Positions 36,196 through 47,158 of a stretch of DNA of 64,000 nucleotides are shown here, piece after piece. The first letter of the stretch is position 1. Each line of letters starts with the position of its first letter. Origin of the DNA: Thermodesulfovibrionales bacterium (GTDB lineage Bacteria; Nitrospirota; Thermodesulfovibrionia; Thermodesulfovibrionales; SM23-35); assembly GCA_963715195.1 (NCBI GenBank), contig CAVQRT010000007.1, forward strand, positions 96,001-160,000, written 5' to 3'. Made by a program: the position numbers and the translations under genes. The notes beneath the pieces are model-generated. The model did no database searches and had not been told where the DNA came from. It saw only the letters and a list, made by a program, of their open reading frames with translations.

Positions 36196-38772
36196 CTACA
36201 GACTTAAACGTTTCTTCAACTCGATAAGTTTACTGAGGGCTTCATGTGGAGTCATTGTATCTGCATCGAGGTTCCTGATTTCTGTTACAACAGAATCGGT
36301 GAGTGACGAAAAAAGGTCAAGCTGTGCACTTCCCTTCTTTGTCTTCCTGTCCGCAAACCTCGGTTTGCCGGCTTCGTTCAGTTCTTCCTTTTCGAGATTC
36401 GCGAGCACCTCTTTGGCCCTTCCAATAATGCTGTCCGGAAGGCCTGCAAGCCTCGCAACCTGGATGCCGTAACTCTTGTCCGCAGGCCCCTTTTCAATCT
36501 TCCTCAGGAAGATGATTTCGTCTCCCCACTCTTTTACAGCAATATTGTAATTTCTAACGCCATCGTGAGTAAGGGCGAGCTCGGTAAGCTCATGATAGTG
36601 TGTTGCAAAAAGCGTTCTGGCGTGAAGGGCGTTCAGAATGTGTTCGGCAACCGCCCATGCGATGCTGATCCCGTCGAAAGTGCTCGTCCCCCTTCCCACT
36701 TCATCGAGAAGGATAAGACTTTTTGATGTCGCATTGTGTGTGATATTCGAGACTTCGATCATCTCGACCATGAATGTGCTTTGACCCATCGTGAGGAAAT
36801 CGGATGCCCCAATCCTGGTAAATATTCTGTCTGCAATGCCGATATGCGCTTCAGACGCAGGAATAAAACTTCCTATTTGGGTCATGATCATCATGAGGGC
36901 AACCTGCCGCATGTAGGTTGACTTTCCTGCCATGTTTGGACCCGTAATGATGAGAAGACGGTCGGCGTTGTTATCCATATAAACACTGTTCGGAATAAAC
37001 CGGCCGGCTGACTGGATCCTTTCGAGTACCGGGTGGCGTCCGTCGCTTATATCGATGACGCTGGTGTGGTCGACAGACGGTTTTACATAGTTGTACCTCT
37101 TTGACACGACGGCAAGGGAACAAAGAAAATCCGTAATCGCAAGAGCCGATGCAGTCTCGAAAAGTCGTGATGATTCGCGGTGCACTTCACCAAGGATTTC
37201 CTGAAATATCTCATATTCAAGGCCTTTCAGTCTCTCCTCTGAGCCAAGAACCCTGGATTCATATTCTTTCAGTTCGGGTGTTATGAACCGCTCTCCGCCG
37301 ACAAGGGTCTGCTTCCTGATGTAATCATCAGGAACCATGTGGAGGTTCGACTTTGTGACTTCAATGTAATACCCGTAGACTCTGTTATAGCTGATCTTGA
37401 GGGAAGAGATGCCTGTCCGCTTTTTTTCTCTCGACTCCAGTTCCGCAATGAAATATTTTCCTTTTTTCGAAAGATTTCTCAGTTCATCGATCTCGGGAGA
37501 GTATCCGTCCTTGATGATTCCTCCTTCCTTAATATTGACCGGCGGGGAGTCGATGATGCTCTTTTCGATTAGTTCCTTCAGGGCGTGGAATTCAGATATA
37601 GCTTCCGCAATAGTCCGGAGAAAGGCATTTTTTGAAGCGTTCAGGGATTTTTTTATACTCGGCACATTGACTACTGAAATTTTAATTGCTACGGTATCCC
37701 GGGCATTGGCGGTTTTGGCATGTATCTTCGTCGTGAGCCGTTCGATATCCTGTATTCTTCTGAGAGCAGTCCTGAGCTGCTCGAGGAGTTCAAAATCATC
37801 AATGAGATATTCAATCGCGTCTCTTCTCTGTTTAATCTCGTTCAGATCCGTAAGGGGCTTCATGATGGAAGAGCGAAGAAGCCTTCCGCCCATGGGGGTC
37901 AGGGTCTCATCGAGCACCCACAGCAGGGTCCCCTCGGAAGAACCGTCTTTCACATTGTGTGTCAGTTCAAGGTTTCTCTGTGTCGTTGCATCGAGAAACA
38001 TGCACGTGTCCTGTCTGAGACGGGAAATTTTTTTCAGACAGAATGTATCTCTCTGGGTCTCCACAAGATAATTGATGAGCGCACCGGCAGCAGAGATTGC
38101 GGCAGTCATGCCCTCACAACCGAAACCTTCAAGGGATGATACCTTGAGATGCTGCAGTAGTGTTTTATAGGCATCTGCATAATCATAGAACCAGTCTTCG
38201 TAAACGGACACAAAGAATTGCTGAAAGGCCTCCTGATAGTGGATATCGCTCTGAATACTTCTGGGAATAAGGATTTCTCTCGGTTCAAAACGGAAGACCT
38301 CGTCCTGAATATCATCAAATGTCTCGTACATAATGAACTCCCCGGTCGAGATATCAGTCAGTGCGATGCCGTGCTGATTGCCGGAGGGAAAGATGCTAAT
38401 GATATAGACATTTTCCTTCGGATTTTCAGGGGTGTATGTCCCGGGAGTGATGACCCTTACGACATCCCTGTCGACAATCCCCTTTGCCTCCCTGGGGTCT
38501 TCCATCTGTTCACATATGGCAACCTTAAGACCGGATTTGATCAACTTCAGGATATATGAATCCGCCGCAAAATAGGGTACACCGCACATGGGCATAGGGT
38601 CTTCTTTCGATTTGTCTCTCGTTGTAAGTGCTATCTGAAGAATCCTTGAAGCCTTTTCAGCATCTTCTCCAAACATTTCGTAGAAATCTCCAAGCCTGAA
38701 AAGAACAATCGCATCCCGGTACTTTTCCTTTACACTCAAATATTGTTTCATTAACGGAGTCGGTTCAGTCAT
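36196..38772 (-). CDS. mutS: DNA mismatch repair protein MutS
   Basis: TPLMKQY, GDFYE, GPNMAGKST, DEVGRGTST, SYGIQVARLAG. Confidence 0.99.
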   Translation of the reverse strand: MTEPTPLMKQYLSVKEKYRDAIVLFRLGDFYEMFGEDAEKASRILQIALTTRDKSKEDPMPMCGVPYFAADSYILKLIKSGLKVAICEQMEDPREAKGIVDRDVVRVITPGTYTPENPKENVYIISIFPSGNQHGIALTDISTGEFIMYETFDDIQDEVFRFEPREILIPRSIQSDIHYQEAFQQFFVSVYEDWFYDYADAYKTLLQHLKVSSLEGFGCEGMTAAISAAGALINYLVETQRDTFCLKKISRLRQDTCMFLDATTQRNLELTHNVKDGSSEGTLLWVLDETLTPMGGRLLRSSIMKPLTDLNEIKQRRDAIEYLIDDFELLEQLRTALRRIQDIERLTTKIHAKTANARDTVAIKISVVNVPSIKKSLNASKNAFLRTIAEAISEFHALKELIEKSIIDSPPVNIKEGGIIKDGYSPEIDELRNLSKKGKYFIAELESREKKRTGISSLKISYNRVYGYYIEVTKSNLHMVPDDYIRKQTLVGGERFITPELKEYESRVLGSEERLKGLEYEIFQEILGEVHRESSRLFETASALAITDFLCSLAVVSKRYNYVKPSVDHTSVIDISDGRHPVLERIQSAGRFIPNSVYMDNNADRLLIITGPNMAGKSTYMRQVALMMIMTQIGSFIPASEAHIGIADRIFTRIGASDFLTMGQSTFMVEMIEVSNITHNATSKSLILLDEVGRGTSTFDGISIAWAVAEHILNALHARTLFATHYHELTELALTHDGVRNYNIAVKEWGDEIIFLRKIEKGPADKSYGIQVARLAGLPDSIIGRAKEVLANLEKEELNEAGKPRFADRKTKKGSAQLDLFSSLTDSVVTEIRNLDADTMTPHEALSKLIELKKRLSL

Positions 38773-38930
38773 AACGGATATTTAATACCATCGGTACATG
38801 AAAGTGCAATACGGCAGGCAGAGCGCCGCAGATCGAAAATACCTTGACGCTTTTATTTCTTCAGGAACGTTCTGTTGCCGGTTGCAAGCCCTCAGGAATG
38901 AACAATGAATAATGAGTTCCTTTGATCAAA

Positions 38931-38960
38931 GAATTCATCGATGCTCTGCATCGGGGTCAA
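38931..38960 (-). repeat. ACCCCG-hairpin element (IS200/IS605-end-like miniature repeat)
   Basis: Minus strand gaccccgatgcagagcatcgatgaattc; same architecture as 24263-24296 (accccgcagcagagctgagaggtatc). Confidence 0.5.
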
Positions 38961-39132
38961 TATTTCCGCTATTCAGAGATTCCCGCCTGGCAGGAATCGT
39001 TCTGAATTATGAGAAATTGCGGTATATCAACGTCAGATTTTGGTCAAGCCGGAATGTCATTTTATGATACCTCTCGATCGTTGATGAGGAGGGAAATACA
39101 GCGGTGAAGACCGGATTCCAGTGATAGAGGCC

Positions 39133-39171
39133 AAAAAAAATGGCAGGGAATGTATAACATCCCTGCCATTT
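39133..39171 (-). terminator. Rho-independent terminator of the small Sec-peptide gene
   Basis: AAATGGCAGGGA-tgttatacat-TCCCTGCCATTT followed by a U-run on the minus strand. Confidence 0.85.
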
Positions 39172-39179
39172 CGAATCGC

Positions 39180-39326
39180 TTATTCGTTGCTTGACCAGCA
39201 ACGTCAGCTTTTTCAGCTCTTTCACTTATGGCATGACTTCCCGGGAATTTCCTTCATGGCCGTCTTGATCCCTTCCCAGAAAGCAGTTTCTCTCGCGAGC
39301 ATTTTTTTGCTCAGCGGTTTTTTCAT
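39180..39326 (-). CDS. Putative 48-aa multi-selenocysteine peptide MKKPLSKKMLARETAFWEGIKTAMKEIPGKSCHKUKSUKSURCWSSNE
   Basis: RBS AGGAGGT 7 nt before ATG; in-frame TGA at codons 35, 38, 41 in register with TGC Cys32; SECIS-like hairpin after; TAA then terminator; selD nearby. Confidence 0.7.
39185..39203 (-). promoter_or_regulatory. SECIS-like hairpin CGTTGCT-GGTCA-AGCAACG
   Basis: Perfect 7-bp stem, loop starting with GG, 25/16/7 nt from the three UGA codons to the loop. Confidence 0.55.
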
Positions 39327-39392
39327 GGTAATCACCTCCTTTTCTCACATTGATAAATATTATGGGTAAAGGTTTGCTTATAGCTTTACTCA

Positions 39393-39420
39393 ATATTAGC
39401 AGATAAAAATTGTTTGTCAA
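39393..39420 (-). promoter_or_regulatory. Sigma70-type promoter for the Sec-peptide gene (TTGACA-16-TAATAT, extended TG)
   Basis: -35 at 39420-39415; TG-c-TAATAT with -10 at 39398-39393. Confidence 0.55.
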
Positions 39421-39489
39421 GAATTTTTTTGGGTGCTCTGCGCAGCCTGTCCAATTGACTTACATGCTGATATATGTCATTCTATAGGT

Positions 39490-39551
39490 GAAGTCCAGAA
39501 GTTTTTGTATTACGAAGGCCACAAAGACTTTTAGCTTTGTGGCCTTTTTTT
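39490..39551 (+). promoter_or_regulatory. Cold-shock gene leader with terminator-like hairpin
   Basis: aaggccacaaag-acttttag-ctttgtggcctt plus T-run, upstream of the RBS; homologous to 6202-6255. Confidence 0.6.
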
Positions 39552-39593
39552 GATCGTTCTGAGATTTCAATTTACACGTAAGGAGGGAAAATA

Positions 39594-39794
39594 ATGGCTC
39601 AGGGAAAAGTAAAGTGGTTCAACGACTCTAAAGGGTTTGGCTTTATCACCAGAGATGATGGTACGGATATTTTTGTCCATCATTCTTCCATCCAGGGTAA
39701 CGGATTCAAGTCCCTTTCCGAAGGCGATTCAGTCAGCTTTGACAGTGAGAGCGGCCCAAAAGGGCTGAAGGCAATTAACGTAGTGAAACACTAA
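39594..39794 (+). CDS. Cold-shock protein (CspA family), second copy
   Basis: [27 protein letters not shown] aggagg. Confidence 0.97.
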
Positions 39795-39800
39795 GATGCG

Positions 39801-39840
39801 AAGAAGTCCCCTGCAAACGAGCGGGGGACTTCTTCATTTT
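39801..39840 (+). terminator. Stem-loop/terminator after csp
   Basis: aagaagtcccc ... ggggacttctt-catttt. Confidence 0.65.
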
Positions 39841-39849
39841 GAGGATTCA

Positions 39850-40230
39850 TTGGCCCACAAACAAAATTATCTTGAAAGAGTCGAAAAGAATAAACAGCTA
39901 AAACTGAAAGCTGGTTTAATTTCTGACCGTTTCCCTGAAGTTTCAGACATCATCGTTCATATGACCTACTATCAGAAAGCGGTCAATCCGGTTCTGATGT
40001 CAAGAACGATTAATTTCTGGCCCTCTCACTACGCCTACTTCAATATGGAATGCATGAAAAAAGACTGCATTGACGGTGGATTTGATCTCACCTCGGTGAT
40101 TGTCAAGATGATTAAACATCATAAGAAATCAGCCAAAGGAAAAATGTGCTGTAATGGTCATATCATCCCTCCCGCCGCTGAGCATGCAAGCATTACTTAC
40201 GAAATTTCGATTAAGTATAATAAAAAATAA
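39850..40230 (+). CDS. Hypothetical protein with Cys residues (ECMKKDC...CC)
   Basis: Open frame, RBS gagga before TTG 39850. No family recognised. Confidence 0.7.
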   Translation: MAHKQNYLERVEKNKQLKLKAGLISDRFPEVSDIIVHMTYYQKAVNPVLMSRTINFWPSHYAYFNMECMKKDCIDGGFDLTSVIVKMIKHHKKSAKGKMCCNGHIIPPAAEHASITYEISIKYNKK

Positions 40231-40466
40231 GTAGAAATCATACAGATATTACGAATACCTCTGCCGGACTTTAAATTCTCCATCACGAAGTTCGCAAACA
40301 TGATCATAAGAAGCATAAATATCCCTTTAAATATGGTAACGATCCGGCTTATTTCATCACGCATATTTGCATCAGGCCGATTTTCGCTTTGCCAGATACA
40401 ACTATCGCTTCATGGTTAGACAGCCCTTTTGTTAAAAAAGAAATCAATGAATATCTTTACGACTTT

Positions 40467-41516
40467 TTACAATACCTTAATGCAAGGAATTGAACTTGGT
40501 AATACGGTTCCAATGATTGCAGCAGTTTCAACACCTGCAGTTCTCAAGCTGTGAATTAACTGTTCCGCCTGAGATTCAGGAACAGCCAGAAGAAGACCGC
40601 CTGATGTTTGTGGATCAAAGAGCAATTCTTCCTCCTCCCTTGATAATTTTGCGACTATTTCAAGATGTCCTTCTGAAAGTTTTCTGTTTGCTTTATTGCT
40701 TCCAGTTGTTTCACCTTTACGGTACATCTCAAGAGCATGAGGATAAAACGGCAATTTATTATAGAAAAGGTTTATTTGAACTCCACTTCCTGATGACATT
40801 TCCCATGAATGTCCGACAATACCGAACCCTGTTATATCTGTACATGCATGGATATCGAAATTTACTGCCATATCAAGAGCCTTTTTATTAAGAGCGGCCA
40901 CCTGAGGTAAGATGCCTTCCAGTTCCTTGAAGGAGAGTTTTCCTGATCTGCAGGCATTAAACAAAACACCGGTGCCTAATGGTTTTGTGAGAATGAGGGA
41001 ATCACCCTCCTGAACCTTGCAGTTTGTTAATATTCTATCCGGATGAACGATTCCTGTTACGGCCAGACCATACTTGGGCTCATTGTCATCCACAGAATGT
41101 CCACCAGCCATAGAAGCACCAGCTTCAACAACTTTGTCATTGCCGCCACGAAGTATTTCCTTTAAGACACTCTTGTCAAGTTTCTTGGGAGGAAACATGA
41201 CAAGATTCAATGCAGTAAGAGGTTTACCCCCCATAGCATAGACGTCTGAGAGAGAATTCGCTGCAGCAATTTGTCCAAACCAATACGGATCATCTACCGG
41301 CGGAGTAATGAAATCAACGGTACTGATAAAGGCTATCTCATCTGACATGCGGTAAACTGCTGCATCGTCACACGTATTGAACCCGACAAGCAGGTTGGGA
41401 TCATGAGAAGAACTGAGCGCTTTGAGTGCTTCCGCCAGATCTGACGGACCTATTTTCGCTGCTCAGCCGCACGTGCGGGATAGTCCTGTAAGGGTTTTTT
41501 TCTTGAAGAGATTCAT
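40467..41516 (-). CDS. selD: Selenide, water dikinase SelD (selenoprotein; UGA=Sec at codon 18)
   Basis: Read-through gives MNLFKKKTLTGLSRTCG-U-AAKIGP...DDAAVY, in frame with STVDFITP, AANSLSDVYAMGG, GGHS, TDITGFG, DPQTSGGLL. TGA at 41465-41463. Confidence 0.95.
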
Positions 41517-41633
41517 TTTCCTTATTTTTACTTTCGTCTTTAATGTACTTTCATGTCCAATAGTTCTTTTCTATTGCTTTCTCAAGATGTATAGAAAATG
41601 TCTATTTATAGCATCGCATTTTTAGTGAATCCC

Positions 41634-42908
41634 CTATGGTTTTCCTGTGGAATGAATTATAAAAATTGCAGCTATTATGAAAAAGAGTATAAGGAATTGT
41701 TGGAGGAGGCTACCCTTTTTGCTTTCTTCTCCAACAGTGAAAGCCCTTTCGCGTGTTATTGTTCCTCGGAGTGTCTTTTTAAAATGCTTCTTCAGTCTAA
41801 TACGGTTCAGGTATGTAAAAGGTGATTTCGAAACTTTTGCCTTGCCTGTCATCGCATTTTCAGGCTCGAAAAGCAGATCAAGAATATGAGTTGTGGGCAT
41901 AGAAGATCCCAAAGAATTAACACACCCTGCACAATAGGTGAGGACTCTATTGTTGCCGTCTGCTTCACTCCTTCTTAAGTGACTCCAGTTCTTGGCGAGT
42001 TCAGGGTTAAGATATCCAACGGAGCCACCCTCACCACAGCAAAGCGTTTTCATTCGACTGTGAGGCATTTCTTTTAAGGTTAGGCCTTTCGCACCCACTA
42101 AATCCCGTATTGCATCATGTACAGGTTTTTCGAACCGTGATGCGCAGGAATCGTGAATAGTTACAGTACCCTCCAGCCTGCCAGTTTCGGGCAAGGCAGT
42201 CTCAATTATCATTTCATATACTGTTTTCACTGTCAGTTCATTACCATAACGCTTGAACACTTTAAAGCAACTCGGACAGGCAACAATAATCTGACGAATC
42301 CCGTTGCTTAAAAGAAATGCCTTCATCTCATCAAACATTCGTTGAAAGTAACCTGCTCTGCCCAGATCATGAGATGGTAGTGTGCAACAGTCGAGGACAA
42401 TTCCCAGCTTTGGAATATTGCTGCTCAAATGCTCGTAAACTTCGATAACTTTTTGAGGATGTGTTCCCGAAAGAGCACACCCGGGGAAAAAAATTGTATC
42501 GCATCCGTGAGGTAGAGAATAAAAAGTGTATTTTTTTGAAATACCGCGCTTTTCGTACCGCAAAATAGTAGCATGCTCCGGATAATAACCGATCCCCCTT
42601 CTCACCGTTTCCCGTCGCATATCCAAAAACATCTCTGTAGGATTGATCTTTACGGGACATACTGCAGCGCACAGCTGGCAGAGGCTGCATTCGAATGGCA
42701 TACCCTGATACAGCTTATCATTCGGATCATATAAATCTGCTATATCTTTTGGTTTCCCGTATTTCCTGAGGAATGCACACTCCTTCTGGCAGAGCTTGCA
42801 TTTTATACATTTCTCGGACATGATCAGAATCTGCTCTCTGAGATTCTCTTCCACATCGAGAGTCGATACATCCCTTACCTGAATTTCACGTTTATCCATC
42901 ACTTCCAT
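41634..42908 (-). CDS. Fe-S oxidoreductase (2x[4Fe-4S] plus CCG domains; HdrD/GlpC-like)
   Basis: CIKCKLCQKEC, CSLCQLCAAVCP, FFPGC, DCC, ACPSC, HDSC, CCGEGG, YCAGC; single C-terminal TM. Confidence 0.88.
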   Translation of the reverse strand: MEVMDKREIQVRDVSTLDVEENLREQILIMSEKCIKCKLCQKECAFLRKYGKPKDIADLYDPNDKLYQGMPFECSLCQLCAAVCPVKINPTEMFLDMRRETVRRGIGYYPEHATILRYEKRGISKKYTFYSLPHGCDTIFFPGCALSGTHPQKVIEVYEHLSSNIPKLGIVLDCCTLPSHDLGRAGYFQRMFDEMKAFLLSNGIRQIIVACPSCFKVFKRYGNELTVKTVYEMIIETALPETGRLEGTVTIHDSCASRFEKPVHDAIRDLVGAKGLTLKEMPHSRMKTLCCGEGGSVGYLNPELAKNWSHLRRSEADGNNRVLTYCAGCVNSLGSSMPTTHILDLLFEPENAMTGKAKVSKSPFTYLNRIRLKKHFKKTLRGTITRERAFTVGEESKKGSLLQQFLILFFIIAAIFIIHSTGKP

Positions 42909-43065
42909 TTAAACGCATCTGCTCCAGGATATCCAATTCATATTTGTTATACCAGCAGAGGAATCAATAGACATTATCAATGCTGAAAAACGAAGATGAT
43001 CGAGTGAAATATCAATTCGTAGCTGAGGACAATTACATAGAAGATCAAAAATAAGGTAACATTGC

Positions 43066-43101
43066 TGTCATTCCCGCAAGCGAAGAACGTCCGGAATGAC
43101 A
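43066..43101. repeat. Short copy of TGTCATTCC...GGAATGACA palindromic element
   Basis: tgtcattcccgcaagcgaagaacgtccggaatgaca. Confidence 0.65.
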
Positions 43102-43139
43102 AAGGTTTTCATACATATGAACCTGTAAGCAACTTATTA

Positions 43140-44411
43140 TTATTCGGAGGAAAGGACTTCTTGGTAGACCGTTCGTATTTTACTGTAAATGCCCTGCCAG
43201 TTCATAGACTCTATGCAAGGGATAACTTCATTTTCCCAGTTGGGTTCCTGAGCAGTGCAACGGTAAAGCTGCCTGTTAATGGCAGTCACGAGGTTATGCA
43301 CAAACGGCGGAAGGGATGATGGATCAGGTACATCAGGGCCCATCAACTGCGGCATCGGAACCAATTCCACGATCCCCTCATTGGTGAGCCTTTCCGGCAG
43401 CCAATGATTTATTCCGGGAAGATTTGTCACGACAACCCTGCAACCGCAGGCGATTGCCTCAAGAACAACAAGGGGAAGGCCCTCATATAATGATGGAAGC
43501 ACAAAGACATCGGCATCCTGAAAGATGGAAGCGAGATCTTCCTGCGGTTTCTGACCGAGAAATTCCACAATATCCCGAAATCTGAAAGCTTTTTCACGAA
43601 TTAATTCAGCTTCATCCCCTGCTCCGGAGCCGACAATACGGAGACGAATATGTTTCCCCGAAGGATGCTCCAAATGTTCTGCTGATTCAATAAGCCATGG
43701 TAATCCTTTTGCAAAACTCAGCTTCCCGGCATATACAATCGTAAGCGTATCTTTTTGGCTACGGCTGCAAGTCATGGATAGAGGAGGACAGAAAATATCA
43801 TTTCGGAAACCTGCACCGATGAGTTTTATGCAAGAAAGGTCAATCCCGTAAAGTTCGTGTATCCTTACCATATGATTCTCGTGGAGAGCCATAACCCTAT
43901 CGACATATGAACACGCAGGAATGACAAATTCTCTGAATACAGGTGCCAAATCCAGTTGTCTTATCTCAGTCCCGTGGCAGGTTGTCACCAGGGGGATATC
44001 TGTGAAGAGCAATCTTGTTAAGGCAGTTGCCAGCCAGAGGTGATGCGTGTGGATTACATGGGGACGAAAATCCCTTACGTTTTTCTTTAGAATGGATGCA
44101 AAGGCATAAAGATATGCGTCAAGCATTTCAGGGGTAAAGTCCGAAAATTTCGTACTCTGATACGGCATGACATCACTCATGCCAGCCACAGGGTAGGGGA
44201 GGTCAGGATCACAGAATCTGACGCATGTTATGCAGGATGTGTCGAGAGATGTCATTTCGGGTTTTGCAGAATCTGACGGGATACCGACAATTATTTTTTG
44301 CTGAAGACCGTCTCTCGCGCCCTGCTGAACTAATGCCTGCAGATAGACACCGCTCCCTGTTTTGCCAGGTTGCTGGGAGAGGAGATGGAGAATCCGCATC
44401 GGGCCATTCAT
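43140..44411 (-). CDS. Glycosyltransferase family 4 (GT-B)
   Basis: MRILHLLSQQPGKTGSGVY, HTHHLW, YAGKLSFAKG, VFVLPSLYEGLPLVVLEAIACG. RBS aaggag before 44411. Confidence 0.88.
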   Translation of the reverse strand: MNGPMRILHLLSQQPGKTGSGVYLQALVQQGARDGLQQKIIVGIPSDSAKPEMTSLDTSCITCVRFCDPDLPYPVAGMSDVMPYQSTKFSDFTPEMLDAYLYAFASILKKNVRDFRPHVIHTHHLWLATALTRLLFTDIPLVTTCHGTEIRQLDLAPVFREFVIPACSYVDRVMALHENHMVRIHELYGIDLSCIKLIGAGFRNDIFCPPLSMTCSRSQKDTLTIVYAGKLSFAKGLPWLIESAEHLEHPSGKHIRLRIVGSGAGDEAELIREKAFRFRDIVEFLGQKPQEDLASIFQDADVFVLPSLYEGLPLVVLEAIACGCRVVVTNLPGINHWLPERLTNEGIVELVPMPQLMGPDVPDPSSLPPFVHNLVTAINRQLYRCTAQEPNWENEVIPCIESMNWQGIYSKIRTVYQEVLSSE

Positions 44412-44628
44412 TTTCACGTGTCTCCTTAATCTGACCGGTTGATGATATTTCAGCAGTTGCCAGGAAAGAGATCCATTAACCGGCCATTCAGGAGTTATGC
44501 GCAGGTGTGGTTCCATAGGATTTAAAATGTAAGCATACCATACTACATAATACAAATATGATTTTTCATATTTCACATCGACTTCTCTTTGCATGGATTC
44601 AGATAAACATTACTGTTACAATAAGGAC

Positions 44629-45099
44629 ATGTTTCATCTCGATATCCCAGGATATGGTCATTTGGACCTTGAATATTTTGTCACTGATTATTCCGGTACG
44701 CTTTCTGAGGATGGTTCTCTTCTCGCTGGGATAAAAGAAAAGCTGAATGACCTTTCTGAAAAATTGCACATCCATGTATTAACCTCCGACACATTCGGAA
44801 AGGCTAAAGATGAGCTAATAGGAATTCAATGCACGCTTCATGTTCTCGGGGGGAATGATCATACAAAGCAGAAGGAAAAATATGTCGTAGAGCTTGGAGC
44901 AGATAAAGTAGTTGCTTTCGGCAACGGCAATAATGATGTGGGAATGCTGAAAGCGGCAAGAGTCGGGATAGCTGTATGTCTCAAAGAAGGATGTTCTTCA
45001 GAATCCATCAAGGCATCTGAAATTCTCGTCAGATCTCCCATTGATGCAATTGATCTCTTTCTCTTCCCGAAGAGACTTATTGCTACCCTGAGAAGATAG
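44629..45099 (+). CDS. HAD-family hydrolase (soluble P-type ATPase-like)
   Basis: DYSGTLSEDG motif I, TSDTFG, GNGNNDVGML, ends RLIATLRR. Start reassigned to ATG 44629. Confidence 0.85.
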   Translation: MFHLDIPGYGHLDLEYFVTDYSGTLSEDGSLLAGIKEKLNDLSEKLHIHVLTSDTFGKAKDELIGIQCTLHVLGGNDHTKQKEKYVVELGADKVVAFGNGNNDVGMLKAARVGIAVCLKEGCSSESIKASEILVRSPIDAIDLFLFPKRLIATLRR

Positions 45100-45120
45100 T
45101 CAGAAGATCATTCCCCCGGA

Positions 45121-46014
45121 TCATTTTCGTTGCAGAACCAAGGCAGCTTGCCAAAAATGATTAGGATCATCGATATAGGTATGAATCGTAAAAAAAGGAG
45201 ACCATTCACGTTCGATAAAGGAAAGCGGAACAATAGCATCTCCGTAGGTTCGGCCAATATGTTCACCACAGGTTGGCAGAAAAGCAATCTCGCCTGCATC
45301 GTATTTCTGGTATAACGCCTCAGATTGTTCAGAATATTGAGAGAGTAACCTGTACCATTCGGACTTTGTATCAGGTGGAATGGTGGTAATGAAATCAATG
45401 AACCGTCTCGGCTCAAGCGTGAGGCAGAATACACTTCCAGGCTTTGAAACTCGTGCAAGTTCGTGCATCCAGTGGAGATTCACACTTTCCGGAAGATGTG
45501 TGAAGACAGAATAGGCTATGATGAAGTCAAAATACGCATCCCGATAGGGAAGTCTTTCTTCGGGAGCTATGAGAGAGAGATTCCCCGGAACGTTTGTTTT
45601 TCGACAGACATCAAGGATTATTGAATTTACATCACAGCCAAACAGTCTATTCACGTTGACATCCTTCCAGAAAAACCGTAAAAACCGACCCCAACCACAT
45701 CCGAAGTCAAGTACCCGACTCTTTCGTTGAAGGGGCATATTCAATAACGCCGCCTGTTGCTTCATAAATGAATAAAAAACGAATGCCTCCTTTAGTGCAT
45801 GCTCATAGTCCGACCCGACAAATCTCACCTGGAGTTCAGGCGGTGGGAATCCCGGGAACTCGATGGTATCGATATTTTTTAAAGATATGCTTCTTATCAG
45901 CAGATCAAGCCAGTCCTCGTCGCAGAGGTTTCTGATATGTTCCGGAAGACGCCTTTTCCTCACCTCTAAAACCTTCTTCGTTTCACGAAAAAGGTTCTTC
46001 ACGTGGTTAAGCAT
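45121..46014 (-). CDS. Class I SAM-dependent methyltransferase
   Basis: VLDFGCGWGRFLR, LPYRDAYFDFI.AYSVFTHL, ELARVSKPG. Start uncertain. Confidence 0.88.
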   Translation of the reverse strand: MLNHVKNLFRETKKVLEVRKRRLPEHIRNLCDEDWLDLLIRSISLKNIDTIEFPGFPPPELQVRFVGSDYEHALKEAFVFYSFMKQQAALLNMPLQRKSRVLDFGCGWGRFLRFFWKDVNVNRLFGCDVNSIILDVCRKTNVPGNLSLIAPEERLPYRDAYFDFIIAYSVFTHLPESVNLHWMHELARVSKPGSVFCLTLEPRRFIDFITTIPPDTKSEWYRLLSQYSEQSEALYQKYDAGEIAFLPTCGEHIGRTYGDAIVPLSFIEREWSPFFTIHTYIDDPNHFWQAALVLQRK

Positions 46015-46152
46015 GCATATATAGTAATCGATTGGCGACAAAAACTGCAGGCGATTGAGGGAAAAATATCTAAGGCATTATGAGTTGAGTTCATGCATCG
46101 GTGAGAGTGTGATTTCGCCCAACACCCTCACCGAAAAAAGGGTAATAATTTT

Positions 46153-46665
46153 CTATTTGACTTTTTCTACGGGATAATCAGCTTCATTCCAGGCTTTGAT
46201 ACCACCTGGATACCGGTATACATTATTGTAACCGAGCTTCACGGCCCACATTGCACCGTTGTGACTCCGTGTGCATTTTACGAAGCCGCAATAAATGACT
46301 ATCGGAATTTCTTTATCGGGACCAAGCAACTTTAAAAAAGCTTCTTTGGTTTTTTCATCGAGGTTTGTCAACTCCGGAATCGGAAACTCGAATTGCACAG
46401 CACCCGGGATATGCTCTTTCTTATAACTGTCTTCGTATGGCATCGTATCAACGATAAGCATGTTCTTCTTCTCGTCAATCCACTTCTTCAGTTCGTCGGT
46501 TGATACAATCTTATAGCCTCCGCGTATGACTTCATTGGCAAATTTGACGGCAGACGCTTCTGTTTCGAGCTCTTTGCTTCCCCATGCTCCAAAACTGTTT
46601 ACAGAAACAGACAAGAGAAACATGCTACAGAAAACCAATGCGGTAAATACCCTTGCTCCCTTCAT
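46153..46665 (-). CDS. Exported rhodanese-domain protein (sulfur/selenium transferase)
   Basis: Signal peptide, IVDTMP..SY...HIPGA, active-site loop YCGFVKCTRSH, YPGGIKAW. RBS aggagg. Confidence 0.88.
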   Translation of the reverse strand: MKGARVFTALVFCSMFLLSVSVNSFGAWGSKELETEASAVKFANEVIRGGYKIVSTDELKKWIDEKKNMLIVDTMPYEDSYKKEHIPGAVQFEFPIPELTNLDEKTKEAFLKLLGPDKEIPIVIYCGFVKCTRSHNGAMWAVKLGYNNVYRYPGGIKAWNEADYPVEKVK

Positions 46666-46678
46666 GCTTACTACCTCC

Positions 46679-47158
46679 TTAAAGTAAATTGATAAGCCAC
46701 GAACGCGGGCTCATTGTGCGATCTGATCGGATATATCTGTGCAGATATATGAAAAATACTGCCCCCATCATCAATAAATCGCGGTAGAAGGCTCTCTTGA
46801 GACTGTCGTGGCCTGCGATCTCTTCAGGGGTGAAACAGCCGCAGCCTATACTCAGATCTTTCAGGATGCCATACCAGAGAACAAATACAAACAGAACGAG
46901 CATGCTGAATATTACGGTTAGACTGCCGCGGATGTTGAAAATAAGTCCTAACCCAGCAAGAAGCTCCATCAGGGGTAACCCGACAGCAACAGGCGCCAGG
47001 AAGGCTTCTGGTATAAGGTCATACTGGGAAATCACCTTTGCAAATGATTTAGGATCCATAATTTTCAGGGATCCCGCGTAGACAAATATACCACCAATCA
47101 TTAATCTTAAAAGAAGGTTGAACCAGGGAGAATGAATGATCTGTTTCAATGAACCCAT
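46679..47158 (-). CDS. MauE/DoxX-family redox-associated membrane protein
   Basis: R...GGIFVYAG..KI.DP, P..E...G, CGCF motif, RDL. Confidence 0.88.
   Translation of the reverse strand: MGSLKQIIHSPWFNLLLRLMIGGIFVYAGSLKIMDPKSFAKVISQYDLIPEAFLAPVAVGLPLMELLAGLGLIFNIRGSLTVIFSMLVLFVFVLWYGILKDLSIGCGCFTPEEIAGHDSLKRAFYRDLLMMGAVFFIYLHRYIRSDRTMSPRSWLINLL

Follow-up and report, generated by a model that had tools for sequence, protein, structure and literature searches.

SbtA/SbtM (TIGR04081, TIGR04082) is a thio(seleno)oxazole RiPP system (PMC9204691, PMC11002830), one that stands as 'selenobacteriocin' in Table 1 of a 2026 review (PMC13188914). In that table it is the only such peptide, and nothing there carries the motif considered below. 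Two selenocysteines (Sec) found three residues apart are known as well from several families of UxxU and terminal-Sec selenoproteins (NF041115, FmdB-family, SaoC, KCU-star; PMC13188914), with a SECIS beyond the stop having been described for SaoC (bioRxiv 2022.07.06.499078). From the perspective of enzymology, further points of reference are CteB, Tte1186, and PapB, i.e., ranthipeptide/sactipeptide enzymes. When Sec is substituted into the peptides, both PapB and Tte1186 give selenoethers in vitro, with Sec binding to an open site on auxiliary cluster 1 before the selenoether is formed (PMC10177961).

The locus described here is found on the minus strand of the window, that is, of the whole 64,000-nucleotide stretch of Thermodesulfovibrionales DNA that was analysed. 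As with SbtA/SbtM, its family combines a short, UGA-recoded precursor of about two Sec, a SECIS behind that precursor, a radical SAM/SPASM gene next door, enzyme motifs QxHxT and CR[RK], and anaerobic hosts. Most likely what is seen is a tiny, wrongly annotated gene which reads two UGAs as selenocysteine, giving a 40-residue peptide. Probably this peptide gene encodes the precursor in a selenocysteine RiPP system of two genes, representing a second family that is separate from SbtA/SbtM. The gene and its co-retained radical-SAM enzyme, that is, point to a family of enzyme-modified selenium peptides.

The peptide gene and its UGA codons

The gene, all of whose features lie on the minus strand, is preceded by a candidate sigma-70-type promoter at 39393..39420 (TTGACA, 16 nt, TG-TAATAT; 10/12), which is a sequence match. 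TTGAC(A/T)-type sites are found 5' of the gene in 40 of the 146 homologous loci with sufficient flank, and the region has 6 promoter-like sites versus 6.4 expected. An AGGAGGT ribosome-binding site follows at 39334..39340, with RBS-like motifs seen in 137 of those 146 loci, and then the coding sequence of the 40-aa peptide together with its stop codon (39204..39326), which begins with the ATG at 39326 and is supported by homolog conservation. Residues 1-31 (39234..39326) would appear, as judged from their sequence, to have a leader role. They display a conserved L-x-K-E-A-A-F-W-x-x-L-K-K within a helix predicted for residues 7-26, with E13 and W17 found in 109 of 117 loci, and the peptide model consists of that helix along with a low-confidence tail. 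Residues 32-40 (39207..39233) form the core, C-H-K-U-K-S-U-K-S, as indicated by homolog conservation and by synonymous codon variation 3' of both TGAs. Among the 117 loci the core Cys is retained in 117, K34 in 112, K36 in 111, K39 in 114, and S40 in 96, and the motif as seen across homologs is C-x-x-U-x-x-U-K-S-stop. No second copy of the gene was found in the source genome.

An earlier note on this DNA had given the same letters, with TTGACA at 39420, TG-TAATAT ending at 39393, AGGAGGT at 39340-39334, ATG at 39326, the Cys codon at 39233, TGA at 39224, 39215, and 39206, and TAA at 39182-39180, all of which are present. Its broader suggestion, that a small gene is really present, that UGA encodes selenocysteine in it, and that its layout is leader plus core, is borne out by homolog conservation and Sec machinery and, as to layout, by the conserved helical leader and the core with its disordered tail in the model. 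The local pattern taken alone would be within chance, as C-x-x-TGA-x-x-TGA patterns number 126 in the genome, with a SECIS-like hairpin in 6 cases; in terms of sequence it is conservation that serves as proof of the gene. Two further sites, G000:C19:59025 and C20:2775, carry an identical C-x-x-TGA-x-x-TGA stretch, hairpin, and RBS-like site, and are probably a duplicated element.

Codon counts were based on 117 distinct homologous loci, none of which was chosen by DNA pattern. Pattern-selected loci (L036-L154) were left out of these counts because the pattern itself fixes those codons, and also dropped beforehand were L127, L153, and L196 (chance), L157 (a remnant), and L221 (damaged). The first Sec codon (39222..39224, residue 35), found 25 nt from the SECIS loop, is TGA in 117 of 117 loci, and the second (39213..39215, residue 38), at 16 nt, is TGA in 116 of 117. 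The third TGA (39204..39206, codon 41), only 7 nt from the loop, is the true stop and is variable among homologs: TAA in 58 loci, TGA in 39, TAG in 8, and a sense codon in 12. The TGA share of these codon-41 stops, 37%, equals the share in the long ORFs of the source genome (420/1144). The first 30 loci as read out display the same pattern, i.e., the first two TGAs constant and the third variable.

Codon changes at Lys36, Lys39, and Ser40 are mostly synonymous across loci, and protein-level selection therefore lies behind both UGAs, just as had been suggested in the earlier note from the differing codons of the Lys-Ser spacers. What is found, that is, is an in-frame TGA conserved in homologs along with conserved coding sequence 3' of that TGA, rather than the homologs ending at codon 34 with TAA or TAG, and with nothing conserved beyond, that the same note had named as contrary evidence. 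Its expectation of conserved TGA in homologs holds for codons 35 and 38 but not for codon 41.

Cys homologs aligned to a TGA are the usual supporting criterion for a selenoprotein, though not a strict requirement. Here the Cys form was seen at the TGA positions in none of the 117 loci, although the filter permitted Cys, and in none of 9 database entries opened among 120 listed. Absence of a Cys version suggests that the chemistry needs selenium and, as none exists in the loci seen, the family is therefore missed by the usual Cys/Sec-pair search. Variation in the core is seen otherwise. One locus (L246) has a single-Sec variant, C-Q-K-U-K-E-T-stop, 5' of an intact enzyme gene, and a divergent branch (L271, L272, L275-L277, L283, L299), with enzyme 42-47% identical and SECIS spacing kept, has cores of C-L-A/K-U-K-x-U-K-x-x and leaders with E-x-R-L/F-F/W.

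Behind the stop, in the 3' UTR at 39185..39203 (minus strand), is a bacterial SECIS hairpin with a 7-bp stem, a GGUCA loop, and a folding energy of -8.9 kcal/mol, as supported by folding and covariation. Two-sided changes occur in 6 of 7 pairs, with 0 of 500 shuffles reaching the score and slid registers scoring far lower, this being for a set of 26 hand-picked rows among which kin inflate that score. In the bSECIS model (PMC13188914) the loop is of 3-9 nt, has G in its first two positions, and is at a distance of 16-37 nt to the UGA, with a folding energy of at most -7.5 kcal/mol. Both UGAs agree with this model, and the stop, at 7 nt, is outside of the range. Loop distances are 25 and 16 nt in 62 of the 117 loci and 26-27 and 17-18 nt in 39 more. 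The frame of the SECIS relative to the ORF differs between loci (offsets 72/29/16), and the region behind codon 41 is therefore RNA rather than protein. A single hairpin would seem to serve both UGA codons.

A second hairpin, at 39133..39169 (minus strand) and with a U7 tail, is either an intrinsic terminator or a 3' stabilising stem. It is strong (z = -5.7, 0 of 200 shuffles), in keeping with the terminator that had previously been claimed, and is not listed by a simple terminator scan. Its base motif is seen in 138 of 178 loci versus about 11 in shuffles, including where the enzyme gene comes next; a crude hairpin scan of 70 loci, which missed stems, is superseded by this count. An Rfam scan of 37000-43000 gave no match at the peptide gene, only a sub-threshold cspA leader. 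Contigs from 4 RNA runs, of 11 with a small share of the stretch, cover only the cspA gene and are uninformative on the peptide gene.

The machinery needed for recoding was proposed as a check on the reading and is found: selA and selB above cut-off, tRNA-Sec, and, 1.1 kb from the peptide gene, selD (40467-41516, minus strand). The in-frame TGA at the selD catalytic site is indeed there, at codon 18 (R-T-C-G-U-A-A-K), with plain ORF callers starting this gene at 41348 and thereby losing the catalytic loop. The surroundings include as well the cspA gene (39458-39834, plus strand), with its sub-threshold match to the cspA thermoregulator RF01766 (59.7 of 78 bits), and behind it a 144-aa ORF with several Cys (39796-40230, plus strand), found at the same position in G003 and without a Pfam or real NCBIfam match. 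Located 5' of selD, at 41634-47158, are genes which resemble selenium-neighbourhood families below cut-off, i.e., those of an Fe-S/CCG protein (NF045663 'diclust_near_Sec', 245 of 530), a GT4 glycosyltransferase, a HAD protein, a methyltransferase, a rhodanese (TsoB-like part), and MauE/DoxX. In L008, L024, and L157 as well, a flanking position next to the peptide is taken by the HAD gene.

Of 401 genomes sampled from the phylum, 74 have the peptide, one of these (G126) being a chance match, and records with the closest homologs are, among the matches listed, mostly labelled Nitrospirota/Thermodesulfovibrionales. Against NCBIfam and Pfam the peptide gives no family match. In databases the product is entered as a hypothetical protein of 34 aa, truncated at the first TGA, such that the prediction that gene callers would miss the gene is correct of the true product but not of its truncated form, which is listed.

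The partner enzyme

In most homologs the peptide gene lies just 5' of an uncurated 347-aa radical SAM/SPASM gene. What is seen, that is, is the short leader-core precursor linked to a radical SAM/SPASM gene that typifies radical SAM RiPPs, which supports the earlier suggestion of a Se-containing RiPP precursor whose neighbours should be inspected for such enzymes. In the source genome the two are unlinked. There the enzyme ortholog, 60% identical to a linked ortholog, is at G000:C3:30483-31523, a separate contig from that of the peptide, behind a holin-like gene and with no peptide gene before it.

Linkage was counted from both directions. Of the first 30 loci, 13 have a radical SAM gene directly 3'. 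A DNA-pattern search gave at least 119 matches, 80 of them with flanks, and after dropping of 14 that had no leader or SECIS there were 66 true members; in 52 of these 66, among the matches listed, the enzyme gene is within 5 kb downstream. Starting with the enzyme, the peptide is upstream in 53 of 59 metagenome loci whose flank is 350 nt or longer (80 kept of 563 matches). It is upstream too in 15 of 15 full-length orthologs of at least 42% identity among 301 genomes from another phylum, i.e., that of a Syntrophus-labelled record; a 40%-identity homolog in that sample has no peptide upstream.

Among 101 relatives searched with the 48-aa query, 47 were matched at E <= 0.1 and 38 at E < 1e-5, with G060 confirmed later and seven weak matches dropped (G005, G006, G037, G050, G059, G066, G067), only G005 of which was rechecked. 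Both genes are present in 38 of these genomes, the peptide only in one (G049), the enzyme only in one (G052), and neither in 61, where G049 and G052 are fragmented assemblies and kin genomes are not independent; selA is present in 94. The genes are adjacent in 21 of the 38 and unlinked in 17. Within genera g1, g6, g11, g19, g20, g25, g35, and g45, the peptide and enzyme genes split together. One genome counted as having neither (G048) retains decayed remnants of both, on different contigs (L157, L158): a leaderless peptide gene with its second TGA changed and an enzyme gene which is without roughly residues 50-300, behind the same holin-like gene. The enzyme is dedicated to the peptide, that is, kept and lost with it, even when unlinked.

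Other genes are less constant companions. YceI (16 of 66 neighbourhoods) and a PEMT-like methyltransferase (8 of 66) are often found 3', and no peptidase, exporter, or RRE gene is conserved near the pair across the 66. In one lineage (L060, L074, L079, L095, L109) the gene directly 3' of that for the enzyme encodes a second radical-SAM-cluster protein. One genome (G397; L189-L191) has three peptide copies, i.e., one enzyme-linked, one unlinked, and one with a damaged leader. Beside unlinked copies may be found another radical SAM gene (L006) or selB (L007, L022).

The enzyme has Pfam Radical_SAM and SPASM domains and ten invariant Cys, at 19, 23, and 26 and at 252, 270, 308, 311, 317, 320, and 343. 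It falls below every NCBIfam cut-off, with heme b synthase best (163-187 of 500) and then NirJ2, GeoRSP, ACGX, and SbtM, and it passes none of the curated maturase models PapB, StsB, and SkfB. The barrel starts at residue 7 of the structure model (pLDDT 88.8), and therefore there is no RRE, as is the case for about half of RiPP classes (PMC11002830). The nearest folds, at 14-21% identity, are the peptide/protein maturases SkfB, SuiB, anSME, PqqE, and CteB. By sequence, solved structures give 12 distant matches, the best being SkfB at 1.9e-16, and matches in the ESM Atlas are confined to generic radical SAM/SPASM clusters. In number and position the seven SPASM Cys are compatible with the arrangement of CteB and PapB, in which cluster 1 would have three ligands, and an AhbD-like paralog also has seven. 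In a 26-row tree, which is midpoint-rooted, carries no clade test, and has row labels assigned from motifs, the enzyme clade is apart from SbtM and the ACGX maturase and nearer to Ahb/Nir-like and mycofactocin-like rows.

Proposed mechanism and its alternatives

The sequence of events could be as follows. SelB, on the single SECIS hairpin, would recode both UGAs in turn, with translation ending at codon 41. The leader helix (E13, W17, K21) would then dock on the enzyme, in which an N-terminal recognition domain is absent, and the enzyme would use SAM radicals to modify the C-x-K-U-K-x-U-K core. Sec or Cys may bind the three-Cys auxiliary cluster and become bonded to a carbon atom in a nearby residue, the conserved lysines being the probable partners, such that selenoether rings arise. 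Granting that the peptide is a substrate, such a selenoether crosslink is tentatively the favoured chemistry; an SbtM-like oxidation, with a selenoaldehyde or selenooxazole formed at the beta-carbon of Sec, is possible though less likely, and some other chemistry equally so. With no conserved peptidase or exporter nearby, the product therefore probably remains intracellular, with a role in redox or metal handling and not that of a secreted antibiotic.

The most elaborate version, which in its entirety is doubtful, is of an obligately selenium-dependent RiPP in which an RRE-less, leader-binding enzyme joins two Sec to lysine carbons. That would be a first natural selenoether-ring peptide, made from unlinked genes in trans and serving anaerobic Nitrospirota and Desulfobacterota as an intracellular redox or metal cofactor. 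Against a RiPP reading generally, seven Cys in such a layout are non-diagnostic, NCBIfam scores are highest for heme b synthase and NirJ2, if well under the cut-off, and the core is without the acidic acceptor (CX3D) of PapA and without the Gly-Sec-Gly motif of SbtA.

Strongest among the rivals is a reading in which the peptide, left unmodified, is a partner subunit that carries Fe-S or selenium. Here C-x-x-U-x-x-U, with three chalcogen ligands at i, i+3, and i+6, would hold an Fe-S cluster or donate selenium or electrons, while the enzyme acts on a small, heme- or cofactor-like molecule. Co-retention is explained equally well this way; top HMM scores go to heme-pathway enzymes, with Ahb/Nir-like rows among the tree neighbours; and the pair often has YceI or the PEMT-like methyltransferase next to it rather than a conserved peptidase or exporter. 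A partner subunit is nevertheless improbable, as the predicted anatomy of leader and disordered core would suit a precursor instead, as does the strong hairpin between the genes, which fits with precursor excess. In addition, the source genome has its own AhbD-like gene elsewhere, and no conserved small-molecule pathway surrounds the pair.

A selenium-sensing leader peptide is a good deal less probable again. Ribosome progress over the two UGAs would in that case control the downstream hairpin and hence the next gene, as the tandem UGAs, the SECIS, and a conserved terminator-like stem right before the enzyme gene in linked loci might indicate. The peptide gene, however, is intact in 17 genomes which have the enzyme elsewhere, with unrelated genes 3', often on the opposite strand. 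Attenuation, furthermore, needs no invariant Cys, Trp, Glu, or Lys, and only 4-5 bp of possible anti-terminator pairing is seen by eye.

Still less credible is that the peptide acts on its own in chelating metal or storing selenium, in the manner of a metallothionein, with the enzyme an incidental neighbour. The source gene is monocistronic and 1.1 kb from selD, and some unlinked copies have selD, selB, or a HAD gene beside them. But the enzyme is present in 38 of 39 peptide genomes, unlinked cases included, the two genes have decayed jointly in G048, and there are only three chalcogens. Co-retention largely refutes the idea of a chelator or store, and near-perfect co-retention with one enzyme disfavours all of the stand-alone metallothionein, store, and sensor readings that had been offered at first.

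Very improbable is a product with three Sec, the 48-aa frame ending in RCWSSNE that the earlier note had put forward, with C-x-x-U-x-x-U-x-x-U-x-C as its motif. Were all three TGA read, the frame would stay open to 39180, and 39 of 117 loci do have TGA as codon 41. That codon is TAA or TAG in 66 of 117, however, making it a variable stop whose TGA share is that of the background; 7 nt to the loop is outside of the 16-37 nt model; and the tail, i.e., the eight 'codons' after codon 41, is the SECIS hairpin, which shifts frame between loci (72/29/16) and varies as RNA pairs. Least credible of all is translation stopping at the first TGA to give the 34-aa protein of databases, where most of the 120 entries listed do end, as a plain stop would swap with TAA or TAG, yet TGA is found in 117 of 117, with synonymous-type conservation and a SECIS behind it.

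Comparison with known systems

Descriptions of this family were not found in the available parts of the literature, including PMC3531188, bioRxiv 2022.07.06.499078, and PMC13692751; the main text of BSepDB mentions neither RiPPs nor Nitrospirota, and the deep-Sep, BSepDB, and groundwater-MAG supplementary lists could contain it. Known families with closely spaced Sec, i.e., NF041115, FmdB-family, SaoC, and KCU-star, differ in that none is a 40-aa, radical-SAM-linked peptide, and no model of them matched.

AhbD/NirJ2 (TIGR04545, TIGR04055) have the best HMM scores (163-187 bits) and share the seven-Cys SPASM layout, and some homologs carry the JGI label 'AdoMet-dependent heme synthase'. The cut-off of 500 is unreached, however, identity to the AhbD-like protein of the source genome is about 31-33%, and in the loci seen the new enzyme is never in a heme operon. 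The ACGX enzyme (TIGR04340) is alike in size, in architecture, in having no N-terminal domain, and in having a small Cys peptide upstream. It differs in its eight SPASM Cys and in its target, an ACGS/ACGA repeat peptide without Sec, with the new enzyme scoring 146-169 bits versus a cut-off of 400. With CteB, Tte1186, and PapB, which accept Sec in vitro (PMC10177961), are shared a putative three-Cys auxiliary cluster 1, a putative four-Cys cluster 2, the 18-residue spacing of the first two ligands, and a Cys-bearing core. In contrast to these, the new enzyme has no RRE and is 347 versus about 450 aa long, its score with the PapB model is 66 bits versus 340, and its core is without CX3D and has Sec naturally.

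From SbtA the new precursor differs in being unrelated, with no TIGR04081 match, and in having C-x-K-U-K-x-U-K instead of SGUG/GGUG. The Gly-Sec/Cys motif is absent, that is, and Lys precedes each Sec; nor is there a Cys form in 117 loci. The enzyme is without the 200-aa N-terminal part of SbtM, is 26% identical, belongs to a separate clade, scores 116-147 bits versus the TIGR04082 cut-off of 350, and has seven SPASM Cys to the eight of SbtM. A true SbtA/SbtM pair exists in the source genome as well (L035:1492-3315; G000:C3, minus strand), about 18 kb from the new enzyme, with a 532-aa SbtM scoring 707 of 350 and SbtA scoring 44.8 of 30.5. Its SbtA-type ORF has 58 codons and then an in-frame TGA (..S-S-U-T-G-K-K), unlike the SGUG motif of the review table (PMC13188914), along with a lipoprotein-like Cys.

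As the new genes are unlinked in the source genome, RiPP mining that is based on neighbourhoods therefore misses such pairs. The locus offers as well a natural and compact case for testing a single bacterial SECIS, with two UGAs served and a third UGA spared as stop, and, in a 40-aa peptide and a 347-aa enzyme, what may be a minimal two-part system for new radical C-Se chemistry. It would be a second selenocysteine RiPP system, unrelated to SbtA/SbtM, which is the sole one in Table 1 of the 2026 catalogue (PMC13188914).
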